This document shows positions 24,768-48,976 of a DNA stretch of 64,000 bases, one piece after another (the stretch's first letter is position 1; each line of letters opens with the position of its first letter). The notes below the pieces were generated by a model, which saw only the letters and a list, made by a program, of their open reading frames with translations, had not been told where the DNA came from and made no database searches. Both the position numbers and the translations under genes were made by a program. Source of the DNA: an uncultured Chloroflexia bacterium (GTDB lineage: Bacteria > Chloroflexota > Limnocylindria > Limnocylindrales > CSP1-4). The DNA lies in the NCBI GenBank assembly GCA_963768655.1, contig CAVYIM010000004.1:64001-128000 (forward strand). The letters are read 5' to 3'.

Positions 24768-26831
<2,064 letters not shown>

Positions 26832-30303: not shown

Positions 30304-31527
30304 GTGAGCGACAAGACCAGCAGCGACGCCGCGAACGCCCCGGCGCCGGCCCACACCCCCGAGAAGAGCAAGAAGATCCGCGTCGCCATCGTCGGCGTCG
30401 GCAACTGCGCGAGCAGCCTCATCCAGGGCCGCTACTACTACGAGAACGCCGCTGAGACCGACTTCGTGCCAGGTCTCATGCACGTCAACCTGGGCGGTTA
30501 CCACATCCGCGACATCGAGTTCGTGGCCGCCTTCGACATCGACAAGAACAAGGTCGGCAAGGATCTGTCCGAAGCGATCTACCAGAAGCCGAACAACACC
30601 TTCGTCTTCCAGAAGGTCCCCCACCTCGGCGTCAAGGTCGAGCGCGGCATGACCCACGACGGTCTGGGCAAGTACCTGTCCCAGATCATCGAGAAGGCAC
30701 CCGGACCCACGGCCGACGTAGCCGGGATCATGCGCGAGCGCAAGGTCGACGTCATGATCAACTACCTGCCGGTCGGCTCCGAGGAAGCGACCAAGTGGTA
30801 TGTCGAGCAGGCGCTCGCCGCCGGCGTCGGCGTCGTCAACTGCATCCCGGTCTTCATCGCCCGCGAGCCGTACTGGCAGCGCCGCTTCGCCGAGAAGGGC
30901 CTGCCGATCATCGGCGACGACATCAAGAGCCAGGTCGGCGCGACGATCAGCCACCGCGTCCTCACCCGCCTCTTCATGGACCGCGGCGTTCGCGTCGACC
31001 GTACGTACCAGCTGAACTTCGGCGGCAACACCGACTTTCTCAACATGCTCGAGCGGGAGCGGCTCGAGTCGAAGAAGATCAGCAAGACGAACGCGGTCAC
31101 CTCGATGCTCGACTACGACATCGACCCCGACAACATCCACGTCGGCCCGTCGGACCACGTGCCGTGGCTGCTCGACCGCAAGTACTGCTACATAGTCATG
31201 GAGGGCACGACATTCGGCGACGTGCCCCTCAAGTGCGAGATGAAGCTCGAGGTCTGGGACAGCCCGAACAGCGCCGGCGTCGTCATCGATGCCCTCCGCT
31301 GCCTCAAGCTCGGCCTGGATCGCGGCCTCAAGGGCGCGCTCGTCGCCCCCTCGGCGTACTTCAAGAAAAGCCCGCCCATCCAGCTGCATGACGACATCGC
31401 CTTCAACCGGGTCGAGGCCTTCATCCGCGGCGAGGACAACCAGGCCCTCGTCGGCACGGAGACCCTGCCCAAGAAGTTCACCCGGCCGGCTCCTCTCCGC
31501 GGCGGCGCCCCGGCGGCCACCAAGTAG
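30304..31527 (+). CDS. ino1: myo-inositol-1-phosphate synthase
   Basis: [52 protein letters not shown]. Confidence 0.96.
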
Positions 31528-31597
31528 CAACGACGCCACCCTCCGCTTCCCGGGCGCCTCGCGCGACCCGGGAAGACGGCAGGGGCGCGGCAGAATC

Positions 31598-31627
31598 AAA
31601 GACCGTCGCCATCCGGCGACGGTCTTT
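31598..31627. terminator. Probable bidirectional intrinsic terminator between ino1 and tal
   Basis: Perfect 13-bp stem aaagaccgtcgcc-atcc-ggcgacggtcttt. Confidence 0.75.
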
Positions 31628-31692
31628 CCGTTGGGACCTGCGCCGGCCTCGAGGCCGGGGCGACGGGCTGCGCTGCCGACGGTGAGCGATCC

Positions 31693-32779
31693 TCAGCGCG
31701 CCACGGCGGCAGCGGCGGTCTGCTCGATCCGCGCCAGCAGCGACTTCCACGCGGTCGCGAACGACTCGACGCCTGCCTCCTGGAGACGACCGGCAAGATC
31801 CGCCAGGTCCACTCCCGCGGCCGCGAACCTGGCCATGAGCGCGGGATCGGGAGAGTCGGAGCGGGCCTGGAGGGTTTGCGAAACGGTGCCGTGGCCGGCG
31901 AAGGCGAGCAGCGTCTCCTCTGGCATGGTGTTCACGGTCAGCGGCGCTGCGAGCGCCTCGATGTACAGCACATCGGACGCGGTCTTGTCCTTGGTTCCGG
32001 TGCTGGCCCAGAGGAGCCGTTGCGGTCGGGCGCCCTCGTTCATGAGCCGCGCCCACCGATCGCCGTGGATCAGGGCCGCGTAGGCGTCGTAGGTCAGCTG
32101 AGCCGTTGCGATGCCTAGCTTGAGATGGAGATCGGCCGGCAGGTCGCCGGCCAGCGGGCCGTCCCAGCGGCTGACGAAGACGGAGGCCACCGACGGCACG
32201 TACGGATTCAGTCCGGCCTCGACGCGCCGTTCGATCGCCCGCGTGTAGGCCTCGGCGGCTGCCAGATACTGCTCGGTGGAAAAGAGCAGGGTCACGTTTA
32301 CCGGCACGCCCGCGAAGATCGTCTCCTCGATTGCCTTCAGGCCCGCCGTGGTGCCGGGGATCTTGATGAAGAAGTTGGGGCGGGCGGCGAGAGCGTGGAG
32401 CCTGGCGGCGTCGGCCGCCGTCGTCGCCGCGTCATCGGCCAGGAGGGGCGAGACCTCGAGCGACACGAAGCCGTCGACGCCGCCGGTCCGGTCGATACGT
32501 CGGCCTGAAGAGGTCGGCCGCGCGCCGCAGGTCGTCCAGCGCCAGGTCGAAGAAGATCTCCTCGGTCCTGGTGCCGCCGGCAGATAGCCGCCGGATCTGC
32601 TCGTCGTAGTCCGAGGAGCCGCCGATCGCCTTGTCGTAGATCGATGGGTTGGAGGTCAGGCCCGTCACCGAGAACTCGCGGATGTACTGCTCGAGCTTCC
32701 CGCTGTCGAGCAGCGCTCGGGTGATGTTGTCGAGCCAGACGCTCTGCCCCATCCGTCCGAGCTTTGCGGTCCGGTGCAT
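31693..32779 (-). CDS. tal: Transaldolase; +1 frameshift near 32495
   Basis: GQSVWLDNITR, GLTSNPSI; then DGFVSLEVSP, IKIPGT, NVTLLFS, SVFVSRWD, RLLWASTGTK, VNTMP in the next frame. Confidence 0.9.
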
Positions 32780-32805
32780 GGTGCCTCCAGTCTTGCGGCT
32801 GGCTG

Positions 32806-34080
32806 TCAGCCGTTCAGTACGTCGCCGCGGAACGCGTCGGGATCCTGGAGCCTGCGGCGCAGCGCGTTCAGGAACCGGGCGGCGAGCTCGCCGTCGACGA
32901 GCCGATGGTCGGCCGTCAGCGTCAGCTTCATTATCTGCCGGATGCCGATTCCATCCCCGACCGCGATGGGCGTGGGAACGACGCTTGAGACGGCCAGGAT
33001 CGCCGACTCGCCCGGATTGATGATCGCGCAGAACTCGTCGACGCCGAACATCCCCAGGTTCGAGATGGTGAACGTGCTGCCCGTCATGTCGTCGGGCGTG
33101 AGCGCCCCGTTGCGGGCCGCCTCGGCGAGCTCCGCAGCCCGCGCGTGCAGCTCGACGAGTGAGCGTCGATCGGCGTCGCGTACCACCGGCACGACGAGGC
33201 CATCGGGCAGCGCCACGGCCAGCCCGACGTGGACGCGGCGGCGAGGCCAGACCGAAACTCCGTCGGTACGCGAGTTTACGTCCGGGAACTCCACCAGCGT
33301 CTGCGCGGTGGCCGAAACGATGAAGTCGGTGACAGTGAGCAAGGTGCCGGCGGCCTTGAACTCGGTCCGAAGGGCCAGGACGCGCGTCATGTCGACGGCG
33401 ACCGTGACCGTGAACTGCGGGACCGTGGTCGCGCTGAGCGTGAGCCGCTGAGCGATTACGCGGCGCATCCGGCTCATCTGGCGCGGCGCCTCGTCTTCGG
33501 CGTCCGAGCCGTAGGTGGCCGGGGCCGCGGGGGCCACGGCGGGCGCTGCCGGGGCTGCCGACACCGGAGCCGCAGAGGCGGCCTCCAGCGCGGCGCGGAC
33601 GTCACGCTCGGTGATGCGGCCCTCCGGCCCGGTGCCGGTGATGGTCCGCGGATCGATTCCCGAGTCGGCGGCCAGCCGGCTGGCTCGCGGGCTGATACGC
33701 AGTCGGGAGCCGTCGGCCGGGGGCGTAGCTGACGGAGCCGGGGCAGCCGGAGCGGCCGGAACGGCAGCTTCAGCTTGCGCCACGACGGGCGGTACCGCCG
33801 CTCCAGCGGCCGCGGCCGTGGGAACGTCCGGGATCGGCTCGCCGGGCTCGCCGACGTAGCCGCACACCGTGTTGACCGGGACCGTCTGGCCCTCCTCGAC
33901 GACGCGCTTCAGCAGCACGCCCTTCTCGAAGGCCTCCACGTCCATGTTCGACTTGTCGGTCTCGATCTCGAAGAGCACCTCGCCCTTCTCGATCTTGTCG
34001 CCCTCGCGCTTGTGCCAGGCGACGAGAACGCACTCCTCGGTCATCTGGCCGGGCTTCGGCATTAGGATCGGATGAGCCAT
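32806..34080 (-). CDS. Dihydrolipoamide acyltransferase (E2)
   Basis: Lipoyl motif IETDKS; E3-binding GTGPEGRITERDV; TISNLG; DHRLVDG. Confidence 0.92.
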   Translation of the reverse strand: MAHPILMPKPGQMTEECVLVAWHKREGDKIEKGEVLFEIETDKSNMDVEAFEKGVLLKRVVEEGQTVPVNTVCGYVGEPGEPIPDVPTAAAAGAAVPPVVAQAEAAVPAAPAAPAPSATPPADGSRLRISPRASRLAADSGIDPRTITGTGPEGRITERDVRAALEAASAAPVSAAPAAPAVAPAAPATYGSDAEDEAPRQMSRMRRVIAQRLTLSATTVPQFTVTVAVDMTRVLALRTEFKAAGTLLTVTDFIVSATAQTLVEFPDVNSRTDGVSVWPRRRVHVGLAVALPDGLVVPVVRDADRRSLVELHARAAELAEAARNGALTPDDMTGSTFTISNLGMFGVDEFCAIINPGESAILAVSSVVPTPIAVGDGIGIRQIMKLTLTADHRLVDGELAARFLNALRRRLQDPDAFRGDVLNG

Positions 34081-34114
34081 GGTGTCCCTCGCGGAGTCGG
34101 CGCGTGGCCTGGGT

Positions 34115-36415
34115 CTACAGTAGCGCGGCCACCGCCGCGTAGATGTCGTTGGCGTTCGGCAGGAAGGCCTTCTCGAGACCCTCGGCCTGGGGCGAGATGC
34201 CATTGGCGGCGCCGATCCGGCCGACCGGGGCGTCGAGGTAGTCGAAGGCTTCGAGCTGGATTCGGGCGACGATCTCGTTGACGAAGCTGCCGATGAGGAC
34301 AGCCTGGCTCGCCACGACGCAGCGCCCGGTCTTGCGAACGGAAGTCAGGACGGTTTCCATGTCGAGCGGGACGAGGCTGCGCAGGTCGACGACCTCCGTT
34401 TCGACGCCCTGTTCAGTCTTCAGTCGCTCCGCCGCCGCGAGCGCGTCGATGACCGCCGGACCCCAGGCGACGATGGTCGCGTCGGCGCCTTCGCGGATGA
34501 CCCGCGCGACGCCGAGCGGCTCGAGATAGTCGCCCTCGGGCACGATGCCCTTGGTGCCATACAGGCCCTGGCTCTCGACGAACAGGACCGGGTTGTTCGT
34601 CCGGATCGCCGACTTCAAGAGCCCTTTCGCGTCGGCAGGCGTGGCCGGGTAGACGACGTACAGGCCGGGGATGTGGGTGAAGACGCTCTCCAGCGACTGC
34701 GAGTGCTGGCCGCCGTAGCCCTTGCCGGCGCCCACGGAGGCTCGGATGACCAGAGGCACCTCGGTCTGGGCGCCCGACATGTAATGCCACTTGCCGGCCT
34801 GGTTGGCGATCTGGTCCGAAGCCATGAGCGCGAAGTCCATGTACATCAGCTCGACGACCGGGCGCAGCCCGACCATCGACGCGCCGACTGCCGTGCCGCA
34901 AATGCAGGCCTCGGAGATCGGCGTGTTGAAGACGCGTTCGCGACCGAATGCCTCGAGCAGGTCCTTGGTGAGCTTGAAGGCTCCGCCGTAGTCGGCCACG
35001 TCCTCGCCGTAGACCACGACGCGGCGGTCGCGCAGCATCTCCTCGACGAGCGCCTCGCGGAGCGCGTCCTTGTATGTGGTCACGCCGTTGGCGCGCTTGG
35101 CGACGGGTGGCGCGGCATACGTCACGACGGCGCCCTCCGGGTCCGGGACGATTTCCGCGGACGTGTCCGTGTAGAGGTACTTGAGCACGTCGGCCGGGGC
35201 CGGGTCCGTCGCCTTGGAGGCTCGCACGGCGGCGCGGGCGTTACGCTCGTGGGCCCGAGCCTCGATCGCGGCGAGCGTGGCCGCGTCGGCGACGCCGGCC
35301 GCGATCAGTTGGCCCTTGAGCCGCTCGATCGGGTCGACGGCCCGCCAGGCCGCTTCCTCCTCTCGGGTCCGGTACTCGTTGCGGGGGTCGGATAGGGAGT
35401 GGCCGTAGTAGCGGTATGTGCTCGCCTCGATGAGGACCGGACCGTGCCCCTCGCGGCAGATCGCCGCGGCCCGCTCGATAGCGTCGCGGACGGCCAGCAC
35501 GTCCATGCCGTTGACGGTCTCGGCGTACATGTTGTTCTGGGCGAAGCCGGCCGCACGGCGGGCCAGGTGGTTGACGCCCATTACTTCCTCGTCGGTCCGA
35601 TGGGTCATCCCGTAATGGTTGTTGACGATCAGGTAGATGACCGGCAGGCCGGCTGCGCGTGCACCGGCCAGGTGGTTGGTCCACTGCTCCTGGGCCGCCC
35701 AGTTGAGCGATTCGAGGACGACACCGTTGGCGTAGGCGCCGTCTCCGGCGAAGCAGCACACCACCTTGTCGGAGCCGCGGTAGCGGACAGCCATCGCCGC
35801 GCCCGTGGCGATCGGCACGCTGCCGCCGACGATCGCGTTCGCGCCCAGATGGCCGGTCGAGAAGTCGCCGATGTGCATGCCGCCGCCCCGTCCGCGGCAG
35901 TAGCCCTCTTCCTTGCCGAACAGCTCGGCGATGGTCTTGTAGACGTGCTCCTCGAGGGCGTCGGCGAGGAGGCCGTCATGGTCCCTGGCCTTCGACCAGG
36001 GCGCGCGGGCCCGCAGGGCGTCGTCGGACATCGCCCGGACCGCGGCGAAACCCTTGGCGATGGCGTCGCCGTGGCCGCGATGAGAGCTCGTGATATGGTC
36101 GTCGGGCCGCAGGGCGCCGCAGGCGCCGACGGACGTTGCCTCCTGGCCGATCGAGACGTGGGTCGGGCCGCGGTAGTCGTAGCCCGGCAGTGGGTCGTAG
36201 CCGCCCGAGCGGAGGCGGACGATCATCTCCTCCAGCTCGCGGATGGCCAGCATGTCGTCCAGCAGGTCGAGCGCCGACGCGGCGGTGACCCGCCCCGCGG
36301 CAATCTCGGAGCCGGCGTCGCCGGCGAAGTCGAAGCCGCGGATCGCGCCCAGGGACTCCTCGAACGGCGCAAGATCGGGTCGAGTGTCGCTCCTGTAGGC
36401 CGGCTCCGTGACCAT
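34115..36415 (-). CDS. Fused E1 alpha-beta ThDP-dependent dehydrogenase (2-oxoacid/acetoin family); start may be up to 36481
   Basis: GQEA, HRGHG, GRGGGMH, GDGA...NN ThDP motif, YRYYGHS; beta part GEDV, NTPISE, HSQ, DLRSL. Confidence 0.9.
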   Translation of the reverse strand: MVTEPAYRSDTRPDLAPFEESLGAIRGFDFAGDAGSEIAAGRVTAASALDLLDDMLAIRELEEMIVRLRSGGYDPLPGYDYRGPTHVSIGQEATSVGACGALRPDDHITSSHRGHGDAIAKGFAAVRAMSDDALRARAPWSKARDHDGLLADALEEHVYKTIAELFGKEEGYCRGRGGGMHIGDFSTGHLGANAIVGGSVPIATGAAMAVRYRGSDKVVCCFAGDGAYANGVVLESLNWAAQEQWTNHLAGARAAGLPVIYLIVNNHYGMTHRTDEEVMGVNHLARRAAGFAQNNMYAETVNGMDVLAVRDAIERAAAICREGHGPVLIEASTYRYYGHSLSDPRNEYRTREEEAAWRAVDPIERLKGQLIAAGVADAATLAAIEARAHERNARAAVRASKATDPAPADVLKYLYTDTSAEIVPDPEGAVVTYAAPPVAKRANGVTTYKDALREALVEEMLRDRRVVVYGEDVADYGGAFKLTKDLLEAFGRERVFNTPISEACICGTAVGASMVGLRPVVELMYMDFALMASDQIANQAGKWHYMSGAQTEVPLVIRASVGAGKGYGGQHSQSLESVFTHIPGLYVVYPATPADAKGLLKSAIRTNNPVLFVESQGLYGTKGIVPEGDYLEPLGVARVIREGADATIVAWGPAVIDALAAAERLKTEQGVETEVVDLRSLVPLDMETVLTSVRKTGRCVVASQAVLIGSFVNEIVARIQLEAFDYLDAPVGRIGAANGISPQAEGLEKAFLPNANDIYAAVAALL

Positions 36416-36477
36416 GCTCTGAACCTCTTGCTCTGCTTTGGCTGTCGTCGTATTCATCGGTCTGGCCGTTGTCCTCT

Positions 36478-37464
36478 TCATGCGGCGAGGAGCAGCCTGG
36501 CCGCTTCCTCATCTGTGATCAATCGATGGATGAGCCCGCTGCGGAGGGCCGCCAGGATCGCGGGCGCCTTGGCAGCGCCGCCGGCAATCGCCGTGACATC
36601 CGGGACGGCTCTCAGTTGCTCCGGGCTGATGGCAATGAAGCGGCCGGGCAACCCGGCGGCTCTCACCTCCGCGCCGTTCGCGTCGAGGACGGTCGAGCAG
36701 ATGTCCGCCACCGCACCGGCCGCGTCGAGCGCCGCAGCGATCTCCTCGGGCAGCGCCGCCCGAACGGTCGACCCACTGGCCGTCCACGCGCCGATGCCGA
36801 CCACGGCCTTCGTGAGGCGATCGAACATGGCGATGGTCCTGTGGACGTGCGGGTCGGCCCGGAGAGCCGAGGCCATCTCCGGGCTGTCGACCAGCAACGG
36901 CACGTAGAGCGGATACACGGGGCCGCCGGCGCAGTCGGCCACACGCCGAACGAGCTCCATAGAGTTGACGTCGAGCTCGAGCGTCGGAACGCTGCCCACG
37001 ATCTGGACGACCGTGCAGCCGGGCAGCCTGGCAAGGTGCCCGACCATCGAGTGGAGCGTCCGGCCCCACGAGATCCCGAGGACGTCGTCCGCCTCGAGGG
37101 TTTGCGTCAGCAGCTCCGCGCAGGTCCGGCCGAGCTGCTCCCTCTTGAACTCCTCGGGTCCGTCGATCGGCCGGACGACGATCGCATCCACGAGGCCGTG
37201 CCGCGCGGCGAGTTCGCCGGAGAGCTCCAGATCGATCTCGGGGGGTGCTCCGACCTCGATTCGCACGATCCCATCGCGGCGCGCGGCGTCGAGCAGGCGG
37301 GCGACCTTGAAGCGCGAGATCCCAAGTTCCTGGGCGATCTCGCTCTTGCTCGCGCCGTCCAGGAAGTAGCGTCGCGCAACGAGCACGGTCGTCACCACCT
37401 GGAGGCGCGTGGCGCGTCCTTCAGATCGGGCCAGCGGGTTCATCTGCTCCTCGTTCTCTGCCAC
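36478..37464 (-). CDS. SorC/DeoR family sugar-binding transcriptional regulator
   Basis: ARRYFLDGASKSEIAQELGISRFKVARLL HTH; GISWGRTL; AGGAAK; LITDE. Confidence 0.93.
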   Translation of the reverse strand: MAENEEQMNPLARSEGRATRLQVVTTVLVARRYFLDGASKSEIAQELGISRFKVARLLDAARRDGIVRIEVGAPPEIDLELSGELAARHGLVDAIVVRPIDGPEEFKREQLGRTCAELLTQTLEADDVLGISWGRTLHSMVGHLARLPGCTVVQIVGSVPTLELDVNSMELVRRVADCAGGPVYPLYVPLLVDSPEMASALRADPHVHRTIAMFDRLTKAVVGIGAWTASGSTVRAALPEEIAAALDAAGAVADICSTVLDANGAEVRAAGLPGRFIAISPEQLRAVPDVTAIAGGAAKAPAILAALRSGLIHRLITDEEAARLLLAA

Positions 37465-37515
37465 CCGGCGGCACCGAGAGGTTCTTTCGGCCGCCTCGAC
37501 GAGCGCGGCGAAGCC

Positions 37516-37560
37516 ATCCTAGCATTCTCACATCTGAGCGGCAAGCGCTCAAACGAGCGC
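37516..37560 (-). promoter_or_regulatory. Promoter of the regulator operon with inverted repeats flanking the -35
   Basis: Minus strand TTGCCG-17 bp-TAGGAT with TG extension; IRs CTCA-catc-TGAG (37527) and GCGCTC-aaac-GAGCGC (37545). Confidence 0.65.
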
Positions 37561-37673
37561 CGACGTCACGACACTCAGAACTGGGCCGGCGGCGAGGGCC
37601 GCCGCCCGGACCGTGCGACCGAGGCGGTGGGCGCCTCCGTCTGACGTGGCACCTGGCTACCGAAGTTTGTGGC

Positions 37674-37702
37674 TTGATAGCCGACTCGCGGGCACGTAAC
37701 AT
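37674..37702 (+). promoter_or_regulatory. Sigma70-like promoter for the PHP-aldolase-dehydrogenase operon
   Basis: TTGATA-17 bp-TAACAT. Confidence 0.6.
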
Positions 37703-37848
37703 GGGACCCGCCGGCAACTAATCGTAAAGAGCCGAAACTAAATGGAAGTAGCCGAAAGAAAGCGCCCAGAAAGAGCCACGCAGGCTCGCCTCCGTCGTCG
37801 GCCTTGAAGACGGGGAGCACGCGCCGGCGGCGCCGGTCGAAGGGAAAG

Positions 37849-39090
37849 GTGTACGACAGTCCTCGCGTGAGCGGCGACTGGAAGGCCCGATCGGAACGAC
37901 CGATCGTCAATACACACGTCCACTTGCCGCCCAACTTCTCGGCGTTCGATACTGCCGAACAGGCGGTTCGGATCGCCGCTGCCGAAGGAGTCGCGGTCCT
38001 CGGAAGCTCCAACTACTACGACTTCGGCGTCTATCGGTCCTTCGCGGCCGCAGCGGCCGCAGCGGGAATGGTGCCCCTCTTCGGCGTGGAGATCATCACG
38101 CTCATCGGCGACCTGCCGGCCGGCGGCTCGCTCATCAACGATCCGACCAATCTCAACCGGATGTACCTGTGCGGCAAGGCGCTGAACCGTCTCGACCCGC
38201 CGGTCGTTTCGGCCGCGCGTCGCATGGCCGCGATCCGTGCAGTCAGCGAAGACCGCATGCGCCAGATGACCGCACTCGTCGCGGCTCGCTTCGAGCAGGC
38301 CGGTCTGGACGGGGGCGTGACCGACAAGCAGATTGCGGCATCGGTGGCGCAGCGATGCGGCGTCCCGATCGAGTGGGTGTCGCTGCAGGAACGACACCTG
38401 GCGCAGGCATTCCAGGAACTGCTCTTCCGGGACGTCGAGCCGGGCGGCCGGGCTGCCGCGCTGGGCCGGTTGTTCGAGGCGCCGACGAGTGTCGACACGG
38501 CCGATGCGATCGCCGTCCAGGAGGCGGTCCGCTCGAACTTGATGAAGGCCGGCAGGCCGGCGTTCGTGCCCGAGGCGGCCATCTCGTTCGAGGACGCCTA
38601 CCGGCTGATTCTCGAGCTGGGCGGCATCCCCTGCTACCCGATCCTCGCCGACGGCGCAGCGCCGATCTGCACCTTCGAGCAACCGGCCGAGGCACTGGCA
38701 GAGCGGCTGCTCGGTCGCGGCGTCTACTGCGCCGAGCTGATCCCCGGGCGAAACCGGCCCGAAGTCGTCGATCGCTACGTGACCGTGCTCCGCAGCGCCG
38801 GAATCGTCATCATGGCGGGCACGGAACACAACACGAAACGAATGCTCCCGGTCGCGCCGACGGCGTTGGGCGGCGAACAGCTGTCCGACCTGGCGCGCGA
38901 GGCCTTCTGGGAGGGCACCTGCGTCGTGGCGGCACATCAACATCTCCGCGCATCCGGCCGTCCCGGCTACGTTGATGACGATGGGCGGCCGATTGCCGGG
39001 TTCGCCGACGGTGAAGCGCGCATCCGATGGTTCCGCGAGGCCGGCGCCGACCTCATCACTACTCGATTCGCTGCGAGGGCCCAAGCTTGA
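37849..39090 (+). CDS. PHP-domain (metal-dependent phosphoesterase-like) protein
   Basis: NTHVHLP, FGVEI, ELIPGRN, AGTEHNT motifs. Confidence 0.7.
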   Translation: MYDSPRVSGDWKARSERPIVNTHVHLPPNFSAFDTAEQAVRIAAAEGVAVLGSSNYYDFGVYRSFAAAAAAAGMVPLFGVEIITLIGDLPAGGSLINDPTNLNRMYLCGKALNRLDPPVVSAARRMAAIRAVSEDRMRQMTALVAARFEQAGLDGGVTDKQIAASVAQRCGVPIEWVSLQERHLAQAFQELLFRDVEPGGRAAALGRLFEAPTSVDTADAIAVQEAVRSNLMKAGRPAFVPEAAISFEDAYRLILELGGIPCYPILADGAAPICTFEQPAEALAERLLGRGVYCAELIPGRNRPEVVDRYVTVLRSAGIVIMAGTEHNTKRMLPVAPTALGGEQLSDLAREAFWEGTCVVAAHQHLRASGRPGYVDDDGRPIAGFADGEARIRWFREAGADLITTRFAARAQA

Positions 39091-41135
39091 ACACCCAATC
39101 CACGCCGGAGGGGCGGTCCGTCGTCGAAGCCCTTCTGAACGACACGATCGCGCTCTCGCACCGGTTCGGCGCGGACCCGGAGTACACGCGCGGCGGCGGC
39201 GGCAACATCTCGGTCAAGGCCGACGGGGTCCTGTACATCAAGCCGAGCGGCACGTCTCTCGCGACGCTGACGGCGGAGTCGGTCATCGCCCTCGATGTCC
39301 GGCCGCTGCTGGAGCTCCTCAACGCATCGCCGGATCTCCCGGTCGAGCCCGGCACGGATCTGGTCATGCAAGTAGCCATGGGTGCCCGCCTCGGCGCGCG
39401 TGACGATCGACGCCCGTCCGTCGAATCCCTGTTTCACGCGCTTCTACCGGAGCGATTCGTGCTCCATACGCATCCGACGATCGTCAATGCCGTGACGTGT
39501 GCGACCCACGGGGCCGAGATCGTCGAGCGGCTGTTCGGCGCGGACGCCTTGTGGGTTCCCTACACCGATCCCGGGCTGCCCCTCGCCCGCGCCATCCGCG
39601 ACGCGAGGAAGAGTCACGAAGAAGGGATGGGGAAGTCCGCGCCCCGGGCGATCTTCCTCCAGAATCACGGCCTGATCGTCGCCGCCGACTCGACTGCGGA
39701 GATCGACGAGGCGTCCGCCCGGCTGATCGCGGTGATTCGGGCTCATCTGGCGGAGCTGCCGGCCATCTCGTGGGGCAAGGCCGAGCGACTGGAGGCCAGC
39801 CGGGCCCGGGCGGCGTTGCGTGCCGTCGGTCCTGCGTTGCGGGCGCTCCTGGCCACGGGCGATCGGCTCAAGGTCGTCACTTTCGACGACTCGCCGCTCT
39901 CCGTATCGATGGCCGGTTCGGCGCTGGGGCGGGAATTCGCGCTCGGCGGTCCGCTTACGCCCGACCAGATCGTGTACACCGGCTCGTTCCCTCTCCTCCT
40001 GGAAACTCCTGCCGGCGCGACGCCGGACCTCCTCGTCGATGCGCTGGCCGGCGCGATCGCCGCGCGGGCGGCGACCGATGCCGGGGCGCCGGCCGTCATC
40101 CTGGTGCCGGGGCTCGGGCTGTTCGCGGCAGGCGATTCGGCCGCCCAGGCCGAGATGGTCCAGCAGGTCTTCCTAGACGCCGTCGCCGTGTCGGTTGATG
40201 CCCACCGCCTCGGCGGGGTCAAACCGCTCGCCGACTCGGAGCGCCGGTTCATCGAGCGCTGGGAGGCCGAGGACTATCGCCGCCGCGTTGCCGTCGGCCG
40301 GTCAGTCGCCGGCCGGGCGAGAGGCCTGGTCGTCGTGGTAACCGGCGCAGCCCAGGGCTTCGGGCATGCGATCGCGGCCGACCTCGTATCCCAGGGCGGC
40401 CACGTCGTGCTGGCCGACATCAACGTCGAGCTGGCGCGGCACCAGGCGGAGGCTCTCGCGTCCGAGTTCGGTTCCGGGCGAGCCGTCGGCGTCGCGCTGG
40501 ACGTCACCGACGACGCGTCGGTTGCGGCCTGCTTCGACGAGGTCGTGCGCCGTTTCGGTGGGCTCGATCTTCTCGTCTCGAACGCCGGAATCCTCCGAGC
40601 CGGCAGCGTCACGACCCAGCCCGTCGCGGAGTTCGACGCCGTCACGCGCGTCAACTACCGGGGCTATTTCCTGTGCGTCCGGCACGCGGCGCCCATCCTG
40701 GCCCGCCAGCATAGGGCGCGGCCGACCTACTGGGGCGACATCATCGAGATCAACTCGAAGTCCGGCCTGGCCGGCTCGAGCCGAAACAGCGCCTACTCCG
40801 GCAGCAAGTTCGGCGGCGTTGGCCTGACGCAGTCGTTCGCCCTGGAGCTTGTCGGAGATGGCATCAAGGTCAACGCCATCTGCCCGGGCAACTTCCTCGA
40901 AGGGCCGCTCTGGGCCGATCCGGAGAACGGCCTCTTCGTGCAGTACTTGCGCGAGGGCAAGGTGCCCGGTGCGAAGAGCATCGACGACGTGCGCCGGTTC
41001 TACGAAGCGAAGGTGCCGATGGGTCGTGGCTGCACTCCGGCCGATGTCCTCGAGGCCCTCTACTATGTCGTTGCCCAGCGGTACGAAACAGGGCAGGCCA
41101 TTCCGGTCACCGGCGGCCAGGTGATGCTGAAGTAG
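39087..41135 (+). CDS. Class II aldolase domain fused to SrlD/SorD-like sorbitol-6-phosphate dehydrogenase SDR
   Basis: TTG overlapping upstream stop; GGGNISVK, PSVE, HTHP, NHGL; TGAAQGFG, INSKSG, YSGSKFGGVGLTQS, KVPMGRGC, VTGGQVM. Confidence 0.85.
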   Translation: MNTQSTPEGRSVVEALLNDTIALSHRFGADPEYTRGGGGNISVKADGVLYIKPSGTSLATLTAESVIALDVRPLLELLNASPDLPVEPGTDLVMQVAMGARLGARDDRRPSVESLFHALLPERFVLHTHPTIVNAVTCATHGAEIVERLFGADALWVPYTDPGLPLARAIRDARKSHEEGMGKSAPRAIFLQNHGLIVAADSTAEIDEASARLIAVIRAHLAELPAISWGKAERLEASRARAALRAVGPALRALLATGDRLKVVTFDDSPLSVSMAGSALGREFALGGPLTPDQIVYTGSFPLLLETPAGATPDLLVDALAGAIAARAATDAGAPAVILVPGLGLFAAGDSAAQAEMVQQVFLDAVAVSVDAHRLGGVKPLADSERRFIERWEAEDYRRRVAVGRSVAGRARGLVVVVTGAAQGFGHAIAADLVSQGGHVVLADINVELARHQAEALASEFGSGRAVGVALDVTDDASVAACFDEVVRRFGGLDLLVSNAGILRAGSVTTQPVAEFDAVTRVNYRGYFLCVRHAAPILARQHRARPTYWGDIIEINSKSGLAGSSRNSAYSGSKFGGVGLTQSFALELVGDGIKVNAICPGNFLEGPLWADPENGLFVQYLREGKVPGAKSIDDVRRFYEAKVPMGRGCTPADVLEALYYVVAQRYETGQAIPVTGGQVMLK

Positions 41136-42862
41136 TGAGGAGCGCAAGAGTGACCGGAGGGGAGCCGAAAGAGCGGCCCATTCCCGCCACCCAGCACGCG
41201 ATCCAGATCGTCGACGCCGGCCGGACCGTCCACAACCGCGGGAAGGTTGTGCCGCGGCCCGGGCCGTACCAGGTCCTCGTTCGGATGGAGGCGTGCGGGA
41301 TCTGCTTCTCCGACACGAAGCTCCTCCACGCCTTCACGAGCCATCCCCGCAAGAGCGAGGTTCTCTCGGGACTCGACGCAACCGTGCTGGCCGAGATCCC
41401 GTCGTACGTGCCCGGCCGGCTGCCGACGGTCCCCGGCCACGAGCCCGTCGGACGCATCGTCGCCGTCGGCGATCGGGTGCGCCGCCATCGCGTCGGCGAA
41501 CGGTGCCTGATCCAGACCGACTACCGGCACCTTCCGACGGCGGCCGCGAACGCGGCCTTCGGCTACAACTTCGAAGGCGGGCTCCAGGAGTACGTCCTGC
41601 TCGACGAGCGGATGATCGTCGAGCCCGGGACCGATGAGCGGTTCCTCATCTCCGTCGGCGAGGAGCCGAGCGCATCGGCGGTTGCCCTGGTCGAGCCGTG
41701 GGCGTGCGTCGAAGCCTCGTACGTGTTCCGAGAGCGGCGCGGCCCGCTGCCGGGCGGCCGCCTGCTCGTCGTCGCGGACGCGGGCCACGAGATGGATGGA
41801 ATTGCGGCGCTGCTCGATCAGGCCCGGCCGGCGGTTCTGGCTGTGATGGCCGACGCTGCCGGAAGTCGAGCGCTGAACGCGGCCGGCCTCACTGTGACGA
41901 GCGTCCGCGATCTGGCGGCCGCTCCCCGCCAGGCGTTCGACGACGTTGTGTACTTCGGCGCCGATGCCGCCACGATCGAGGCGCTCCAGGACTGCCTCGC
42001 GTTCCGGGGCCTCATGAATGTCGTGACCGGTGGAGTCGCGATCGGCCGGCCGGTCGCGCTCGACGTCGGCCGCGTCCATTACGACCTCACCCGCTGGACG
42101 GGGACGACGGGCGCCTCGTCGACCGAGGGGTACGCGACCATCCCGGTCGACGGCGAGGTCCGCGCCGGGGATCGCATGGCCGTGATCGGGGCCGCCGGTC
42201 CGATGGGTCTCATGCACGTCGTCCGAGCCGCCTCGGCTGGCCTGCCCGGCCTTTCGATCGCCGCCATCGACATCGACGACGCCCGTCTGGCCAACCTCGA
42301 GCGGGCGGCCGGGCCGATCGCCCGATCGCGCGGGGTCGAGCTGACGGCGGTCAACTCCCAGACCGCCGAGGTCAATCCGGGATTCAGCTACGTCGCGCTG
42401 ATGGTGCCGGCGCCGGCGCTCGTGGGCCAGGCGCTCTCGCTCGCGGGCTCGGGCTGCCGGATCAACATCTTCGCCGGCTTCGCGACCGGGACCAGGGCGG
42501 CCATCGACTTCGACCGCTATCTCGAGCGGCGCTGCCACTTCCTCGGCACGAGCGGCTCGGGGATCCGTGACATGAAGGCAGTCCTCCGCAGGGTCGAGGC
42601 CGGCGAGCTCGACACGAACATCTCGCTCGACGCGGTGACCGGCTTCGAAGGAGTCGCCGATGCGCTGGCGGCTGTCGAGGGCCGAACCGCCGCGGGCAAG
42701 ATCATGGTCTATCCGTCTCTGCCGGACCTCGGGCTGGTGCGTCTCTCCGAGCTGGGCGAGCAATTCCCGAGCGTCGCCGCCGCGCTAGACGATGGCCGCT
42801 GGACGAAGGCGGCCGAGCAGGAGCTGCTGGCTCTGGCCGGCCGGTCCGGGGTGTCGTCGTGA
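41135..42862 (+). CDS. Extended MDR/Zn-type dehydrogenase, SorE (L-sorbose-1-phosphate reductase)-like
   Basis: CGICFSDTK, PGHE, GYNFEGGLQEY, LVEPWACV, GAAGPMG; 575 aa. Confidence 0.75.
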   Translation: MRSARVTGGEPKERPIPATQHAIQIVDAGRTVHNRGKVVPRPGPYQVLVRMEACGICFSDTKLLHAFTSHPRKSEVLSGLDATVLAEIPSYVPGRLPTVPGHEPVGRIVAVGDRVRRHRVGERCLIQTDYRHLPTAAANAAFGYNFEGGLQEYVLLDERMIVEPGTDERFLISVGEEPSASAVALVEPWACVEASYVFRERRGPLPGGRLLVVADAGHEMDGIAALLDQARPAVLAVMADAAGSRALNAAGLTVTSVRDLAAAPRQAFDDVVYFGADAATIEALQDCLAFRGLMNVVTGGVAIGRPVALDVGRVHYDLTRWTGTTGASSTEGYATIPVDGEVRAGDRMAVIGAAGPMGLMHVVRAASAGLPGLSIAAIDIDDARLANLERAAGPIARSRGVELTAVNSQTAEVNPGFSYVALMVPAPALVGQALSLAGSGCRINIFAGFATGTRAAIDFDRYLERRCHFLGTSGSGIRDMKAVLRRVEAGELDTNISLDAVTGFEGVADALAAVEGRTAAGKIMVYPSLPDLGLVRLSELGEQFPSVAAALDDGRWTKAAEQELLALAGRSGVSS

Positions 42863-43866
42863 AGTCGCTCCGGTTGTTCGGGCCCGGCGATCTGCGTCTC
42901 GTGGACGAGGCCGCGCCGCTACCCGGCCCGGGCGACGAGCTCGTTCGTGTGACCGCGGTCGGCATATGCGGCTCCGATCTCCACTGGTACGCGGAGTCTG
43001 GGATCGGCGACACGAAGCTCTCCCGGCCCACCGTCCTGGGTCACGAGGCCGCCGGCGTGATCGAGTCGGGTCCGCGCGCCGGTCAACGGGTCGCGATCGA
43101 TCCAGCCATTCCGTGCGAGACGTGCGAGCAATGTCGTGCCGGCCACACCCATCTCTGTCTCCGCCTGCGTTTCGCCGGCGACGGCACCACCGACGGCTTC
43201 CTGCGTGAGCTGGTGGCCTGGCCGGAGGCGAGCCTGGTTCCCGTGCCCGACAACCTGAGCGAGGCCGACGCCGCGATGCTCGAGCCGCTCGGCGTGGCGC
43301 TCCATGCGGTCAGGCTGGCCCAGATCCGGCCCGGGGAGCGGGTCGGCGTGTTCGGCTGCGGCCCGATCGGGCAATTCCTGATCCAGCTCGCCCGCGCATC
43401 CGGAGCCACGACGATCGTCGCCACGGACGTGCTGCCGCATCGCCTGGCGGCCGCCCGCGCGTCCGGCGCGACCGCCGCGGCTCTCGTGGCCGGCGGCTCG
43501 GAGCGTGTGGAGCTCCGCGCGGCGACCGGCGGGCACGGGGTGGACGTCGCCTTCGAGGCTGCCGGCGTAGACGATTCGGTCGAGACCTCCGTCGCCCTCG
43601 CGGCGCCGGGCGGCACGGTCGTCGTCGTCGGCATTCCCTCCGGAGATCACACCACCTTCACGGCCTCCACGGCTCGCCGCAAGGGTCTCACCATCAAGCT
43701 GTCGCGCCGCATGAACCGGGTCTACCCGGAGGCCATCCGTCTCGTCGAGGCAGGGCTGGTCGACGTTCGATCGGTCGTGACCGCGAGTCACCCTTTAGGC
43801 GAGTACAGGACCGCGTTCGCGGGCGCCGCCGGGCGGGACGGCTTGAAGGTCGTCATCCGGCCGTAG
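42859..43866 (+). CDS. Zn-dependent polyol (sorbitol/iditol-type) dehydrogenase
   Basis: GICGSDLH, GHE, CETCEQC...C, EPLGVA, GCGPIG. Confidence 0.88.
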   Translation: MKSLRLFGPGDLRLVDEAAPLPGPGDELVRVTAVGICGSDLHWYAESGIGDTKLSRPTVLGHEAAGVIESGPRAGQRVAIDPAIPCETCEQCRAGHTHLCLRLRFAGDGTTDGFLRELVAWPEASLVPVPDNLSEADAAMLEPLGVALHAVRLAQIRPGERVGVFGCGPIGQFLIQLARASGATTIVATDVLPHRLAAARASGATAAALVAGGSERVELRAATGGHGVDVAFEAAGVDDSVETSVALAAPGGTVVVVGIPSGDHTTFTASTARRKGLTIKLSRRMNRVYPEAIRLVEAGLVDVRSVVTASHPLGEYRTAFAGAAGRDGLKVVIRP

Positions 43867-43911
43867 AGCGCCTCTTCGCGCCGCCTTCGGGCACCAAGTT
43901 CCGGATCGGGT

Positions 43912-45659
<1,748 letters not shown>

Positions 45660-47207: not shown

Positions 47208-48953
47208 CTACCGCCGGTAGGTCGCGCGAGGCCGGTAGCTGGTGTGGAGCAGTTCCTCGGACTTCTCGCCGAGCGGCTCGCCCAGGAAGTCCTCGTACAG
47301 TTTCTGGATGTACGGGTTCTCGTGGGCGCAGCGCCACAGGCCGGACTGGTCGTCCTGGTAGAGCCCCGCGGCCCGCTTGGCCCGCAGGTTGTCCGTGACG
47401 CCGTACGGCTGGCCGCCGCCGCCGACGCAGCCGCCGGGGCAGGCCATGACTTCGATGAAGTGATAGGGCGGCTCGGTGCCAGCGTCGCGCGCCTGGCGCA
47501 CCTTCGTCAGCACAGTCTCGACGTTGCCCAGGCCGTGGGCTACGGCGAACCGCACCTCTTGCCCCGCAATGTCGACCTTGCCCTCCTTGACACCGTCCAG
47601 GCCGCGCGTCTTGAGGAACTCGAGGCGGGCCGGGTTCTCGCCGGTCATCAGGTAGTAGGAGGTCCGCAGTGCGGCTTCCATCACGCCGCCCGTCGCGCCG
47701 AAGATCGTCCCGGCGCCCGTGTAGGCACCCAGCAGATGATCGGGCTGCTCCTCGGCGAGGGCGCGGAAGTTGATGCCCGACTGTTTGATCATGCGAGCCA
47801 GCTCGCGGGTGGTCAGCGAGACGTCGACGTCCCAGAACCCCGACGAATGCATCTCCTTGGATCGAATGATCTCGAACTTCTTGGCCGTGCAGGGCATGAC
47901 CGAGACGACGTACACCCTGGCGGGGTCGAGCCCCATCTTCTCCGCGTAGTAGGTCTTCGCCAGGGCGCCGACCATCGCCTGCGGGGACTTGCAGGACGAG
48001 AAGTGGGGGATCATGTCGTCGTGGAACTTCTCCATGAAGTCCACCCACGACGGGCAGCACGTCGTGATCAGCGGCAGGACGGCTTTCGCGGTGGTGAAGC
48101 GCCCGACGAACTCGTGGGCCTCTTCCATGACCGTCAGGTCGGCCCCGAAGTTCGTGTCGAAGACGGCCTTGAAGCCCATCCGCCGGAGGGCGGCGTAGGT
48201 CTTGCCGGTGAGGTTCGTCCCGACCGGGAAGCCGAAGGCCTCGCCGATGGCGACTCGGACGGCCGGCGCCAGCTGTGCGACGCAGAAGGCGTCCGGGTCC
48301 AGGAGCTTGTCCCACACGTCCTGGGTCTCGTCGTACTCGACGATGGCGCCGGTCGGGCAGTGGGCCGAGCACTGGCCGCAGCGGACGCACGGTGAGTCGG
48401 CCAGGCTGATGTCGCCGGCGGCGGCGATGCGGGTGTCGATGCCGCGCTGGAGGAAGCTGAGCGCCCACACGTCCTGGATCTGCTGGCAGACCTGGATGCA
48501 GCGGCCGCAGGTTATGCACTTGCGCGGGTCCAGAGTGATGGCGCGGGTCGAGTTGTCGATCGGCAGGTCGGGAACGATGCTGTCCAGGCAGATCTCGCGC
48601 AGGCCGAAGTCGGCGGCGATCGTCTGCAGCTCGCAGTTCTGGTTCCGGCCGCAGGTCAGGCACTCGTTGGGGTGGCGCGACAGGATCATCTCCACTACGG
48701 TGCGGCGGACCTGGATGATCTCCGGGTCTTCCGTGGTGATCTCCATGTCCGGCTCGACCGGCGTGCAGCAGGCGCGCAGCATCTTGTTCGAGCCGGCGAC
48801 GCGGACGATGCAGATGCCGCAGGCGGCCGTGGCCTCGAGGTCGGGGTGCTTGCACAGGGTCGGGATGTGGACGGAAACCTGGCGCGCCGCGTCGAGGATG
48901 GTGGCGCCCGGTGCGACCTCGACCGGCAGGTTGTTGATCGTGGCTTGGATCAT
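47208..48953 (-). CDS. hydA: [FeFe]-hydrogenase catalytic subunit (group A)
   Basis: H-cluster motifs TTCCPSW, MPCTAKKFE, EVMACPGGCVGGGGQP; N-terminal [2Fe-2S], HxxxCxxC [4Fe-4S] and 2x[4Fe-4S]. Confidence 0.95.
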   Translation of the reverse strand: MIQATINNLPVEVAPGATILDAARQVSVHIPTLCKHPDLEATAACGICIVRVAGSNKMLRACCTPVEPDMEITTEDPEIIQVRRTVVEMILSRHPNECLTCGRNQNCELQTIAADFGLREICLDSIVPDLPIDNSTRAITLDPRKCITCGRCIQVCQQIQDVWALSFLQRGIDTRIAAAGDISLADSPCVRCGQCSAHCPTGAIVEYDETQDVWDKLLDPDAFCVAQLAPAVRVAIGEAFGFPVGTNLTGKTYAALRRMGFKAVFDTNFGADLTVMEEAHEFVGRFTTAKAVLPLITTCCPSWVDFMEKFHDDMIPHFSSCKSPQAMVGALAKTYYAEKMGLDPARVYVVSVMPCTAKKFEIIRSKEMHSSGFWDVDVSLTTRELARMIKQSGINFRALAEEQPDHLLGAYTGAGTIFGATGGVMEAALRTSYYLMTGENPARLEFLKTRGLDGVKEGKVDIAGQEVRFAVAHGLGNVETVLTKVRQARDAGTEPPYHFIEVMACPGGCVGGGGQPYGVTDNLRAKRAAGLYQDDQSGLWRCAHENPYIQKLYEDFLGEPLGEKSEELLHTSYRPRATYRR

Positions 48954-48976
48954 CTCGGTCACGGCTGGCACCCGGC

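Follow-up and report, generated by a model that had tools for sequence, protein, structure and literature searches.

Textbook pathways of deoxy-sugar catabolism end at lactaldehyde, and among the complexes that resemble pyruvate dehydrogenase (PDH) the acetoin dehydrogenase AcoABCL and the QncN/QncL pair of quinocarcin biosynthesis are E1/E2 systems that cleave the C–C bond of a ketol and do not decarboxylate a 2-oxo acid. One of the systems closest to the locus considered here is the RhaEW/RhaR pathway of Chloroflexus aurantiacus and Bacillus subtilis, which as described by Rodionova et al. (2013, PMC3870299) is built on RhaEW, a fusion of a class II aldolase with a lactaldehyde dehydrogenase of the short-chain dehydrogenase/reductase (SDR) type that cleaves rhamnulose-1-phosphate and converts lactaldehyde to lactate; according to the same account, some RhaEW regulons add lactate dehydrogenases and so extend the pathway to pyruvate. 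We analyzed a 64,000-nucleotide stretch of DNA (the window; G000:C4:64001–128000, G+C approximately 70%) from a Limnocylindria (Chloroflexota) metagenome-assembled genome of 3.37 Mb in 9 contigs that is 88.6% complete, and focus on two divergent gene units at positions 31693–43866, in which an aldolase–SDR fusion stands beside a PDH-like E1/E2 complex. This locus most likely carries the methyl end of a deoxyhexose to acetyl-CoA.

The minus-strand unit, or left arm, reads sorC-E1-E2-tal and encodes a regulator, a fused E1, an E2 and a transaldolase; the plus-strand unit, or right arm, encodes a PHP-fold protein, the aldolase–SDR fusion and two zinc-dependent medium-chain dehydrogenases/reductases (Zn-MDRs) of 575 and 335 amino acids, with each start codon overlapping or abutting the preceding stop. 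Open reading frame (ORF) calling, codon-position G+C (0.83–0.90 at third positions) and Pfam and NCBIfam scans identify all eight genes as real, bearing out the inventory given in an earlier reading of this DNA (the original prediction) with the end of tal corrected to 32779. That reading was also right that no phosphotransferase system (PTS), ABC transporter, sugar kinase or E3 is encoded in the locus, as far as the window extends. The closest proteins and loci carry the source names Candidatus Limnocylindrales and Chloroflexota.

The genomic company of the right arm was surveyed by scanning one-genome-per-species contigs with a pattern from the PHP-fold alignment, which matched 527 stretches, 476 of them encoding a relative. 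The best 80 of these 476, taken with 10-kb flanks, constitute the locus survey (54 Chloroflexota and 18 Armatimonadota loci), for which genes were called, clustered and counted by tblastn. Of the 54 Chloroflexota loci, 47 have at least 4.5 kb downstream of the PHP gene, and these contain the fusion in 45 cases, the long MDR in 46 and the 335-residue MDR in 40; the last is found in none of five loci from Planctomycetota, Acidimicrobiia and Acidobacteriota with enough downstream DNA. Where both flanks of a Chloroflexota locus reach at least 9 kb (n = 32), L-rhamnose (rha) genes occur in 23 loci, fucI or fucU in 8 and the fused E1 in 10, such that E1 or rha genes are present in 28 of the 32; three loci (L042, L043 and L047) have neither rha, fuc nor E1 genes. 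Recurrent neighbors of the right arm are L-rhamnose mutarotase, RhaI, an FGGY rhamnulokinase, a 274-residue RhaD-like aldolase and a RhaS-type ABC system, joined repeatedly by DeoR and LacI regulators and, in some loci, by L-fucose isomerase (FucI) and RbsD/FucU as named by Pfam. Because the right arm lies within the rha/fuc neighborhoods of relatives, the substrate class appears to be 6-deoxyhexose, not sorbose or polyol, and the synteny survey largely refutes the sorbose/polyol-phosphate framing of the original prediction.

In relatives the fusion lies inside rha loci beside rhaB and rhaI; in this genome the rha genes are on contig C3 instead. The C3 cluster encodes a RhaI that scores 646 bits against an NCBIfam cut-off of 531, together with a rhamnulokinase, RhaS, mutarotase and RhaD that are best matches just under their cut-offs. 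Enzymes of lactate and lactaldehyde metabolism elsewhere in the genome (one LUD_dom gene, a weak FMN_dh match and four or five aldehyde dehydrogenase genes) do not decide between the readings weighed below. In the literature we found no description of the routes considered below and no link between the breakdown of rhamnose or fucose and E1/E2 complexes, PHP proteins or Limnocylindria, and we note that the supplements of PMC3870299 (Figure S6, RhaEW loci) might show related clusters.

Co-occurrence was followed in a genus sample of 24 species genomes and a class sample of 151 evenly drawn genomes; since related genomes are not independent, no P value is given. The PHP and long MDR genes are present in the same 13 of the 24 genus genomes, and the fused E1 (called as an orthologue at ≥82% identity or from high-identity fragments) in those 13 and in one more, G022. 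The class sample has E1 in 17 genomes and PHP in 9, all 9 of them within the 17. The fused E1 therefore accompanies the right arm in 13 of 13 genus and 9 of 9 class genomes, in keeping with the earlier proposal that the two arms belong together. Of five genomes whose locus has no E1 within 10 kb, three have an orthologue (75–81% identity) 11–13 kb away, just past the rha genes. The order is E2<E1<SorC<rhaD<rhaI in G044 and G045, where SorC-E1-E2 continues the rha operon, and DeoR-E1-E2-DeoR-ABC in G042.

The same association recurs outside Chloroflexota, and the full module is present in bacteria of soil, peat and sediment that belong to four phyla. In two Acidimicrobiia loci the genes run rhaI-rhaB-PHP-fusion-MDR-E2-E3-E1 along a single strand, and loci of Phycisphaerae, Anaerohalosphaeraceae and Acidobacteriota are arranged E1<DeoR>E2>E3>PHP>fusion>MDR; the locus L092 also has RhaA, RhaT and rhaB. 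A tree of the E1 beta part with 27 rows (8 module-adjacent and 6 PHP-less Limnocylindria sequences, 5 from other phyla, 4 split paralogues and 4 plasmid sequences) gathers the Limnocylindria E1s in one tight group and places the other-phyla E1s in a separate clade (branch length 1.78, support of 100 in the Shimodaira–Hasegawa-like approximate likelihood-ratio test, SH-aLRT). Two lineages of fused E1 thus serve the same module, which strengthens the case for functional coupling. Within Chloroflexota, the locus L091 (15067–17802) has a 912-residue E2–E3 fusion with lipoyl, E3-binding, catalytic, Pyr_redox_2 and dimerization domains directly after the module E1.

The fused E1 of the window is a 788-residue alpha–beta thiamine diphosphate-dependent dehydrogenase (34115–36481, minus strand; PF00676 (E1_dh), PF02779 (Transket_pyr) and PF02780 (Transketolase_C)), whose orthologues in the class are 74–94% identical and whose best matches in the Protein Data Bank (PDB) and NCBIfam are E1 subunits of PDH and of branched-chain 2-oxoacid dehydrogenase (BCKDH). 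The subfamily model NF006667 for PDH beta accepts its beta half (358.4 bits versus 321), and its alpha half falls below the PDH alpha equivalog TIGR03182 (269 versus 393.85). The alpha loop reads YRYYGHSLSDP, which we take to resemble PDH E1 alpha more than AcoA. The adjacent E2 (32806–34080, minus strand) is a 424-residue dihydrolipoyl acyltransferase with lipoyl (PF00364), E3-binding (PF02817) and catalytic (PF00198) domains, whose true start at 34080 corresponds to M42 of the ORF and agrees with relatives. It scores under the cut-off of every NCBIfam E2 equivalog (TIGR01349, 319.6 versus 445), and the acetoin-type model NF011457 matches its lipoyl domain only (83.7 bits versus 307). In E1 and E2 domain content, in the E3-binding domain of E2 and in the supply of E3 in trans, the complex is like PDHs of the alpha/beta type; it is unlike them in the fusion of alpha and beta in a single chain, in being placed under a sugar regulator of the SorC or DeoR kind and in its linkage to deoxy-sugar genes. 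From AcoABCL and QncN/QncL it differs in lacking an acetoin or nonribosomal peptide synthetase context, and no aco-type neighbors were seen around E1/E2 in the window and its flanks.

The housekeeping PDH is encoded elsewhere. The genome has a separate AceE-type E1 (1270 bits versus an equivalog cut-off of 859.9), a second E2, the only detected E3 and lipA on contig C5, and four POR_N genes of the pyruvate:ferredoxin oxidoreductase (PFOR) type, one of them in the window at approximately 57574–58113 on the plus strand (C4:121574–122113); the only E1_dh gene of the genome is the fused E1 of this locus. These data support the view that the window E1/E2 is not the ordinary PDH of the cell. An ordinary PDH or BCKDH without co-conservation with the right arm, the outcome named as adverse in the original prediction, is not what we find: AceE is separate, E1 is present in every right-arm genome and E1/E2/E3 lies in the locus in three other phyla.

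Relatives of this E1 are found in other settings as well. The closest plasmid-borne E1s (43–47% identity; L122 from Nitratireductor, L124 from Sinorhizobium meliloti Rm41 and L125 from Brevibacillus laterosporus) carry generic names only and lie in ABC or PTS loci for sugars in the order E1a-E1b-E2(-lpdA-lipA), accompanied by a 'sugar-binding transcriptional regulator', and the two alphaproteobacterial sets come after a 441-residue NAD(P)H oxidoreductase; these E1s may represent a wider class of sugar-linked PDH-like complexes. In another Limnocylindria family (f3; L128, 7808–16531, and L129, 7733–16492) a calcineurin-type metallophosphoesterase precedes E1-E2 on the same strand, a second, unrelated phosphoesterase beside the same E1, and split transketolase genes and a tal-like gene lie a few kilobases away.

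The aldolase–SDR fusion (682 amino acids, 39087–41135, plus strand) carries PF00596 at residues 42–225 and PF00106 at residues 435–623, and HxH, NHG and PSxE motifs can be read in its sequence, which we presume to have their usual roles. Over its full length it is matched best by the RhaEW model TIGR02632, which gives 323.9 bits (320.3 when the whole genome is searched) where 567.75 are required; the SrlD model covers the SDR half only (242.9 versus 307). The original prediction was thus right about an aldolase–SDR fusion, and its SrlD label gives way to RhaEW as the nearest whole-length model. TIGR02632 is passed in 56 of 201 Chloroflexota genomes (one of them, G083, unpublished) with scores of 570–1179, and authentic RhaEW proteins, encoded between rhaI/rhaA and rhaB, are 26–31% identical to the window fusion. 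A quick maximum-likelihood tree was made of 27 rows: 15 of the 56 clustered module fusions, selected for full length and spread, three intermediates, and proteins from 9 of 12 RhaEW loci. The 15 module fusions fall in a single clade (SH-aLRT 100, branch length 1.58) that excludes the 9 RhaEW and 3 intermediate rows. Thus, on sequence grounds, we assign the fusion to a separate subfamily that has RhaEW architecture but is not RhaEW.

The described RhaEW/RhaR pathway shares with the module a class II aldolase–SDR fusion kept in the company of rhaI/rhaA, rhaB, rhaM, an ABC transporter and a DeoR-type regulator; it differs in that the module fusion comes with a PHP-fold protein, a 575-residue MDR and E1/E2(/E3), none of which we saw reported for that pathway (PMC3870299). 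In the authentic RhaEW clusters that we examined, no E1/E2 was seen within 5–14 kb. One of them (L109, 1426–5115) has a 274-residue RhaD-like aldolase, 66% identical to that of the Limnocylindria rha clusters, directly after RhaEW; the RhaD-like enzyme may thus be more than a duplicate of the aldolase half found in such fusions. Further PF00596 genes are present in all five genomes of other phyla that were tested, which is uninformative as to whether the fusion is the only aldolase.

The first gene of the right arm encodes a 413-residue protein (37849–39090, plus strand) with an N-x-H-x-H motif, for which no Pfam or NCBIfam match was obtained even at E = 1 (PF02811 was not recognized) and whose profile matched nothing among PDB chains below E 0.6. 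Its AlphaFold2 (AF2) model, with a mean predicted local distance difference test score (pLDDT) of 80.8, matches the PHP phosphoesterases 3e0f, 3o0f, 2yb1 and 9etk in Foldseek (E 3e-9 to 1e-7, probability 1.00). The likeness to COG0613 PHP phosphoesterases (BAD_1165, 3e0f/3o0f; Cv1693, 2yb1; RNase AM, 9etk/7ug9) lies in the fold (Foldseek E 3e-9 to 3e-4, target TM score 0.63–0.70) and in the HxH motif of the first strand, where H23 and H25 are invariant; the differences are an identity of 10–18% and a helical insertion of approximately 110 residues. Several positions that we take to be metal ligands appear, as judged without a residue-level structural alignment, to hold other invariant residues. 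The label 'PHP protein' given in the original prediction is therefore borne out by fold and finds no counterpart in Pfam or PDB sequence matches, and we describe the protein, on the basis of its predicted structure, as PHP-like by fold only. Its homologues number more than 2000, all unnamed, and in the Atlas PF02811 is found on 12% of members in neighboring clusters. In none of the 18 Armatimonadota loci is the PHP homologue joined by the partner genes; it stands beside DsbD, VanW, GT2, SpoIIE and SnoaL-type genes, which are uninformative.

The long Zn-MDR (575 amino acids, 41135–42862, plus strand; PF08240 at 43–162, PF13602 at 412–524) has an alpha/beta insertion of approximately 140 residues between the catalytic and Rossmann domains and keeps Cys57, His102, Glu103 and a GAAGPMG motif. 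Its AF2 model matches butanediol dehydrogenase 6ie0, RspB 4ilk, threonine dehydrogenase 5kia and sorbitol dehydrogenase in Foldseek, and among NCBIfam models IolM scores highest, with 52.7 bits; the protein is a generic Zn-MDR that carries an extra domain, and the SorE-like label once attached to it finds no support. The second Zn-MDR (335 amino acids, 42859–43866, plus strand; PF08240 and PF00107) is of the polyol/threonine dehydrogenase type, with best NCBIfam matches, both under cut-off, to Tdh (179.8) and L-idonate 5-dehydrogenase (175.5). Distant homologues of the long MDR (35–36% identity) occur in 3 of 16 small-genome relatives without PHP (G030, G034 and G036, of a sister family with genomes of approximately 1.1 Mb), which also lack the fused E1.

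The regulator (36478–37464, minus strand), whose stop codon overlaps the E1 start by 4 nt, belongs to the SorC/DeoR(Bacillus)/CggR family of sugar-phosphate-type regulators, having the PF04198 sugar-binding domain (201.9 bits, residues 77–327) after an N-terminal helix-turn-helix; it fails the named NCBIfam models (DeoR, 161 versus 420; LsrR, 111 versus 486). In the intergenic region between sorC and the PHP gene, an alignment of 13 upstream sequences contains an invariant block that reads as a sigma-70-like promoter of the right arm (TTGATA-17 nt-TAACAT, 37674–37702, plus strand), the only promoter-like site in 31400–44100 (12.7 kb). Directly downstream of the −10 element lie two tandem direct repeats of approximately 20 bp (AACyAAkCGtAAAgAGCCGA, 37714–37758, plus strand), a candidate repressor operator for which a position weight matrix (PWM) built from 12 relatives gives 49.7 and 20.7 bits here and no comparable site elsewhere in the 3.37-Mb genome. 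A palindrome just upstream of sorC (TGAGCG-N5-CGCTCA, 37535–37551), kept in 12 of 13 aligned relatives, is a second candidate operator, and its PWM from 11 relatives is likewise unique in the genome. The tandem-repeat operator is probably bound by the divergent SorC-family repressor. We note that an 11-mer and a 9-mer each have exactly two copies genome-wide, one in the sorC–PHP intergenic region (37545 and 37716) and one in the rhaI–deoR intergenic region (G000:C3:529366 and 529449); these words were picked by eye, the chance expectation of such an 11-mer between two GC-rich regions of approximately 350 bp is estimated at ~0.3, and they are not counted as evidence of a shared regulon.

The last gene of the left arm is a transaldolase of the actinobacterial/mycobacterial type (31693–32779, minus strand) with a broken frame, TAL_FSA profile positions 1–73 falling on 32432–32779 and positions 80–284 on 31693–32466. 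The gene reaches 32779 and not 32466 because its N-terminal part lies in another frame, beyond one extra base (+1) near 32493–32500 that is absent from 10 of 11 relatives, in which intact tal encodes 360–389 amino acids. An intact frame over the whole profile, as in NF002881-type transaldolases, is thus not present, the break falling between profile positions 73 and 80, and tal is either a pseudogene or the product of an assembly error; no public sequencing run was found to hold the tal stretch (at most 0.09 of the sampled words). Breaks are seen elsewhere too: in G015:C10:127452–142366 the PHP gene is in three pieces and E1 in pieces with stop codons, and in G221:C1:114425–118261 one TAG lies inside E1 and one TGA inside PHP, reflecting either a decaying locus in some lineages or indel errors of few-contig assemblies, as may hold for tal here.

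To the left of tal, at 5–9 kb, are a full-length transketolase gene (tkt, 24768–26831, minus strand) and a gene for a 582-residue PGI-like protein (22451–24199, minus strand), and the left flank also has an EamA transporter gene, a HAD hydrolase gene and ino1; tkt, the pgi-like gene, ino1 and tal together form a pentose-phosphate/sugar-phosphate neighborhood. The right flank contains pyrG, a second EamA gene and, at 47211–49211 on the minus strand, a gene for a 667-residue [FeFe]-hydrogenase-like protein with a NuoG-type N-terminus (Fer2_4, NADH-G_4Fe-4S_3, Fe_hyd_lg_C and Fe_hyd_SSU). The tal gene accompanies E1-E2 even where the right arm is missing and, in the locus survey, is not in the module outside Chloroflexota. 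The role given to it in the original prediction, that of recycling the remainder after ketol cleavage, is accordingly weak: the gene is frameshifted and lies in a pentose-phosphate neighborhood.

On balance, we lean toward the view that the window encodes the lower half of a catabolic system for 6-deoxyhexoses, namely L-rhamnose and probably also L-fucose, for which the gene content, the domain and fold assignments, the rhamnose/fucose context, the co-occurrence with E1/E2 and the separate housekeeping PDH are established, and the substrates, the order of steps and the pairing of regulator and operator are inferred. The upper half would be encoded on contig C3, with ABC uptake followed by mutarotase, RhaI, rhamnulokinase and the RhaD-like aldolase, and the right arm is one translationally coupled operon. 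In the mechanism that we consider likeliest, at a little short of an even chance within this deoxyhexose frame, the aldolase half of the fusion would split L-rhamnulose-1-phosphate or L-fuculose-1-phosphate into dihydroxyacetone phosphate (DHAP) and L-lactaldehyde, the SDR half and the MDRs would oxidize the three-carbon piece to pyruvate via lactate or methylglyoxal, and the fused E1 and E2, with the C5-encoded E3, would make acetyl-CoA.

Several observations weigh against this scheme. The fusion is not RhaEW (324 versus 568 bits, 26–31% identity, its own clade), and in many Limnocylindria loci the operon also encodes a RhaD-like aldolase, so that the aldolase half would be superfluous; this redundancy argument is weak either way, because the RhaD-like gene also adjoins authentic RhaEW in L109. 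We know of no Zn-MDR lactate dehydrogenase; the AceE PDH and the PFORs should suffice if the product is pyruvate; and the PHP-fold protein, the most conserved partner, is without a role in the scheme. A regulon tie between the window and the C3 rha cluster gained no support, as neither operator PWM has a second site in the genome. Finally, 8 of the 17 class genomes with E1, all at least 92% complete, lack PHP, as does G022; the PHP-less unit reads DeoR or SorC, then E1, then E2, with tal next in L126 and L133. Since E1-E2 exists without the right arm, the dependence is one-way, and the co-occurrence within Limnocylindria could partly reflect inherited synteny.

Some of these difficulties would be eased by a non- or partly aldolytic route, the main rival but a minority possibility, in which an MDR oxidizes C5, the CH3-CHOH end, either of the 6-deoxyketohexose-1-phosphate itself or of a derivative that has been dephosphorylated or reduced, and E1/E2/E3 cleaves the resulting methyl ketol into acetyl-CoA and a four-carbon piece, as acetoin dehydrogenase does with acetoin. 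The SDR and class II halves would then process the four-carbon piece, for example by aldehyde oxidation and OtnC-like decarboxylation to DHAP, and the PHP-fold enzyme would remove or rearrange phosphate; acetoin dehydrogenase, QncN/QncL, LsrF and OtnC, the last of the class II aldolase family, are chemical precedents. Such a route fits a complex that accompanies the module but was not seen with authentic RhaEW in the clusters examined, in a genome that already has a PDH and PFORs, and a fusion that stands outside the RhaEW clade and shares operons with a RhaD-like aldolase. It is also consistent with the resemblance of both MDRs to oxidizers of methyl carbinols or vicinal diols (threonine 3-dehydrogenase, butanediol dehydrogenase), with the recurrence of a phosphoesterase beside E1-E2 (PHP-fold here, calcineurin-type in two genomes of another family) and with the SorC-type regulators and sugar ABC or PTS loci of the closest plasmid E1s. 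Its intermediate and chemistry are conjectural; the E1 alpha loop seems closer to that of PDH E1 alpha than to that of AcoA, the E1 beta half passes a PDH beta model, two E1 lineages serving one module are easier to reconcile with a common substrate, for instance pyruvate, than with an exotic one, and E1-E2 occurs without the module in the eight class genomes noted above. A specific form of this chemistry, in which E1/E2/E3 is a C–C lyase freeing acetyl-CoA from C5–C6 and the fusion and a remodelled PHP-fold enzyme return the rest to DHAP or a tetrose phosphate, we consider rather unlikely.

It is quite improbable, in our view, that the two arms are independent units side by side with no metabolite passed directly between them, the left a class-wide central-carbon unit of CggR-like regulator, second PDH and pentose-phosphate transaldolase, and the right a deoxyhexose accessory operon. 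The PHP-less genomes would be explained by such an arrangement, as would the tkt, pgi-like and ino1 genes that flank the left arm, the split tkt and tal near E1-E2 in family f3, and two candidate operators that differ and do not recur in the genome; it is at odds with the finding that none of the 13 genus and 9 class-sample genomes with a right arm lacks E1, with the integration, in three other phyla, of an E1/E2/E3 from a different lineage into this locus (in Acidimicrobiia within one operon), and with SorC-E1-E2 running on from rhaD in G044 and G045. Still more remote, and in our judgment very improbable indeed, is the pathway first proposed for this DNA, a sorbose-type conversion of ketose or polyol phosphates with ketol cleavage by E1/E2 and recycling by transaldolase. 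The SorC-family regulator and the mix of Zn-MDR and SDR enzymes do recall the enteric sor operon, the SDR half resembles SrlD (at the sub-threshold score given above) and E1-E2-tal adjacency recurs in the class; yet the window and its flanks contain no PTS, NCBIfam identifies no SorE or SorD equivalogue, the conserved neighbors are rhamnose and fucose genes and not sorbose or glucitol genes, and tal, frameshifted here, is not part of the module in other phyla.

Whichever chemistry applies, the conserved module ties deoxy-sugar catabolism to a private PDH-like complex, a step in the flow of deoxy-sugar carbon that is still undescribed, and it holds three enzyme families without an assigned function: the PHP-fold protein without a Pfam family, the non-RhaEW aldolase–SDR fusion and the long MDR. 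The locus may thus encode an undescribed route from deoxy-sugar to acetyl-CoA. If the C–C lyase reading is true, it would define a wider class of sugar-regulated, ketol-cleaving 'PDH' complexes that includes the SorC-linked complexes of rhizobial and Brevibacillus plasmids, and if E1 does cleave a sugar-derived ketol, this would broaden what 2-oxoacid dehydrogenase complexes are known to catalyze in primary metabolism.

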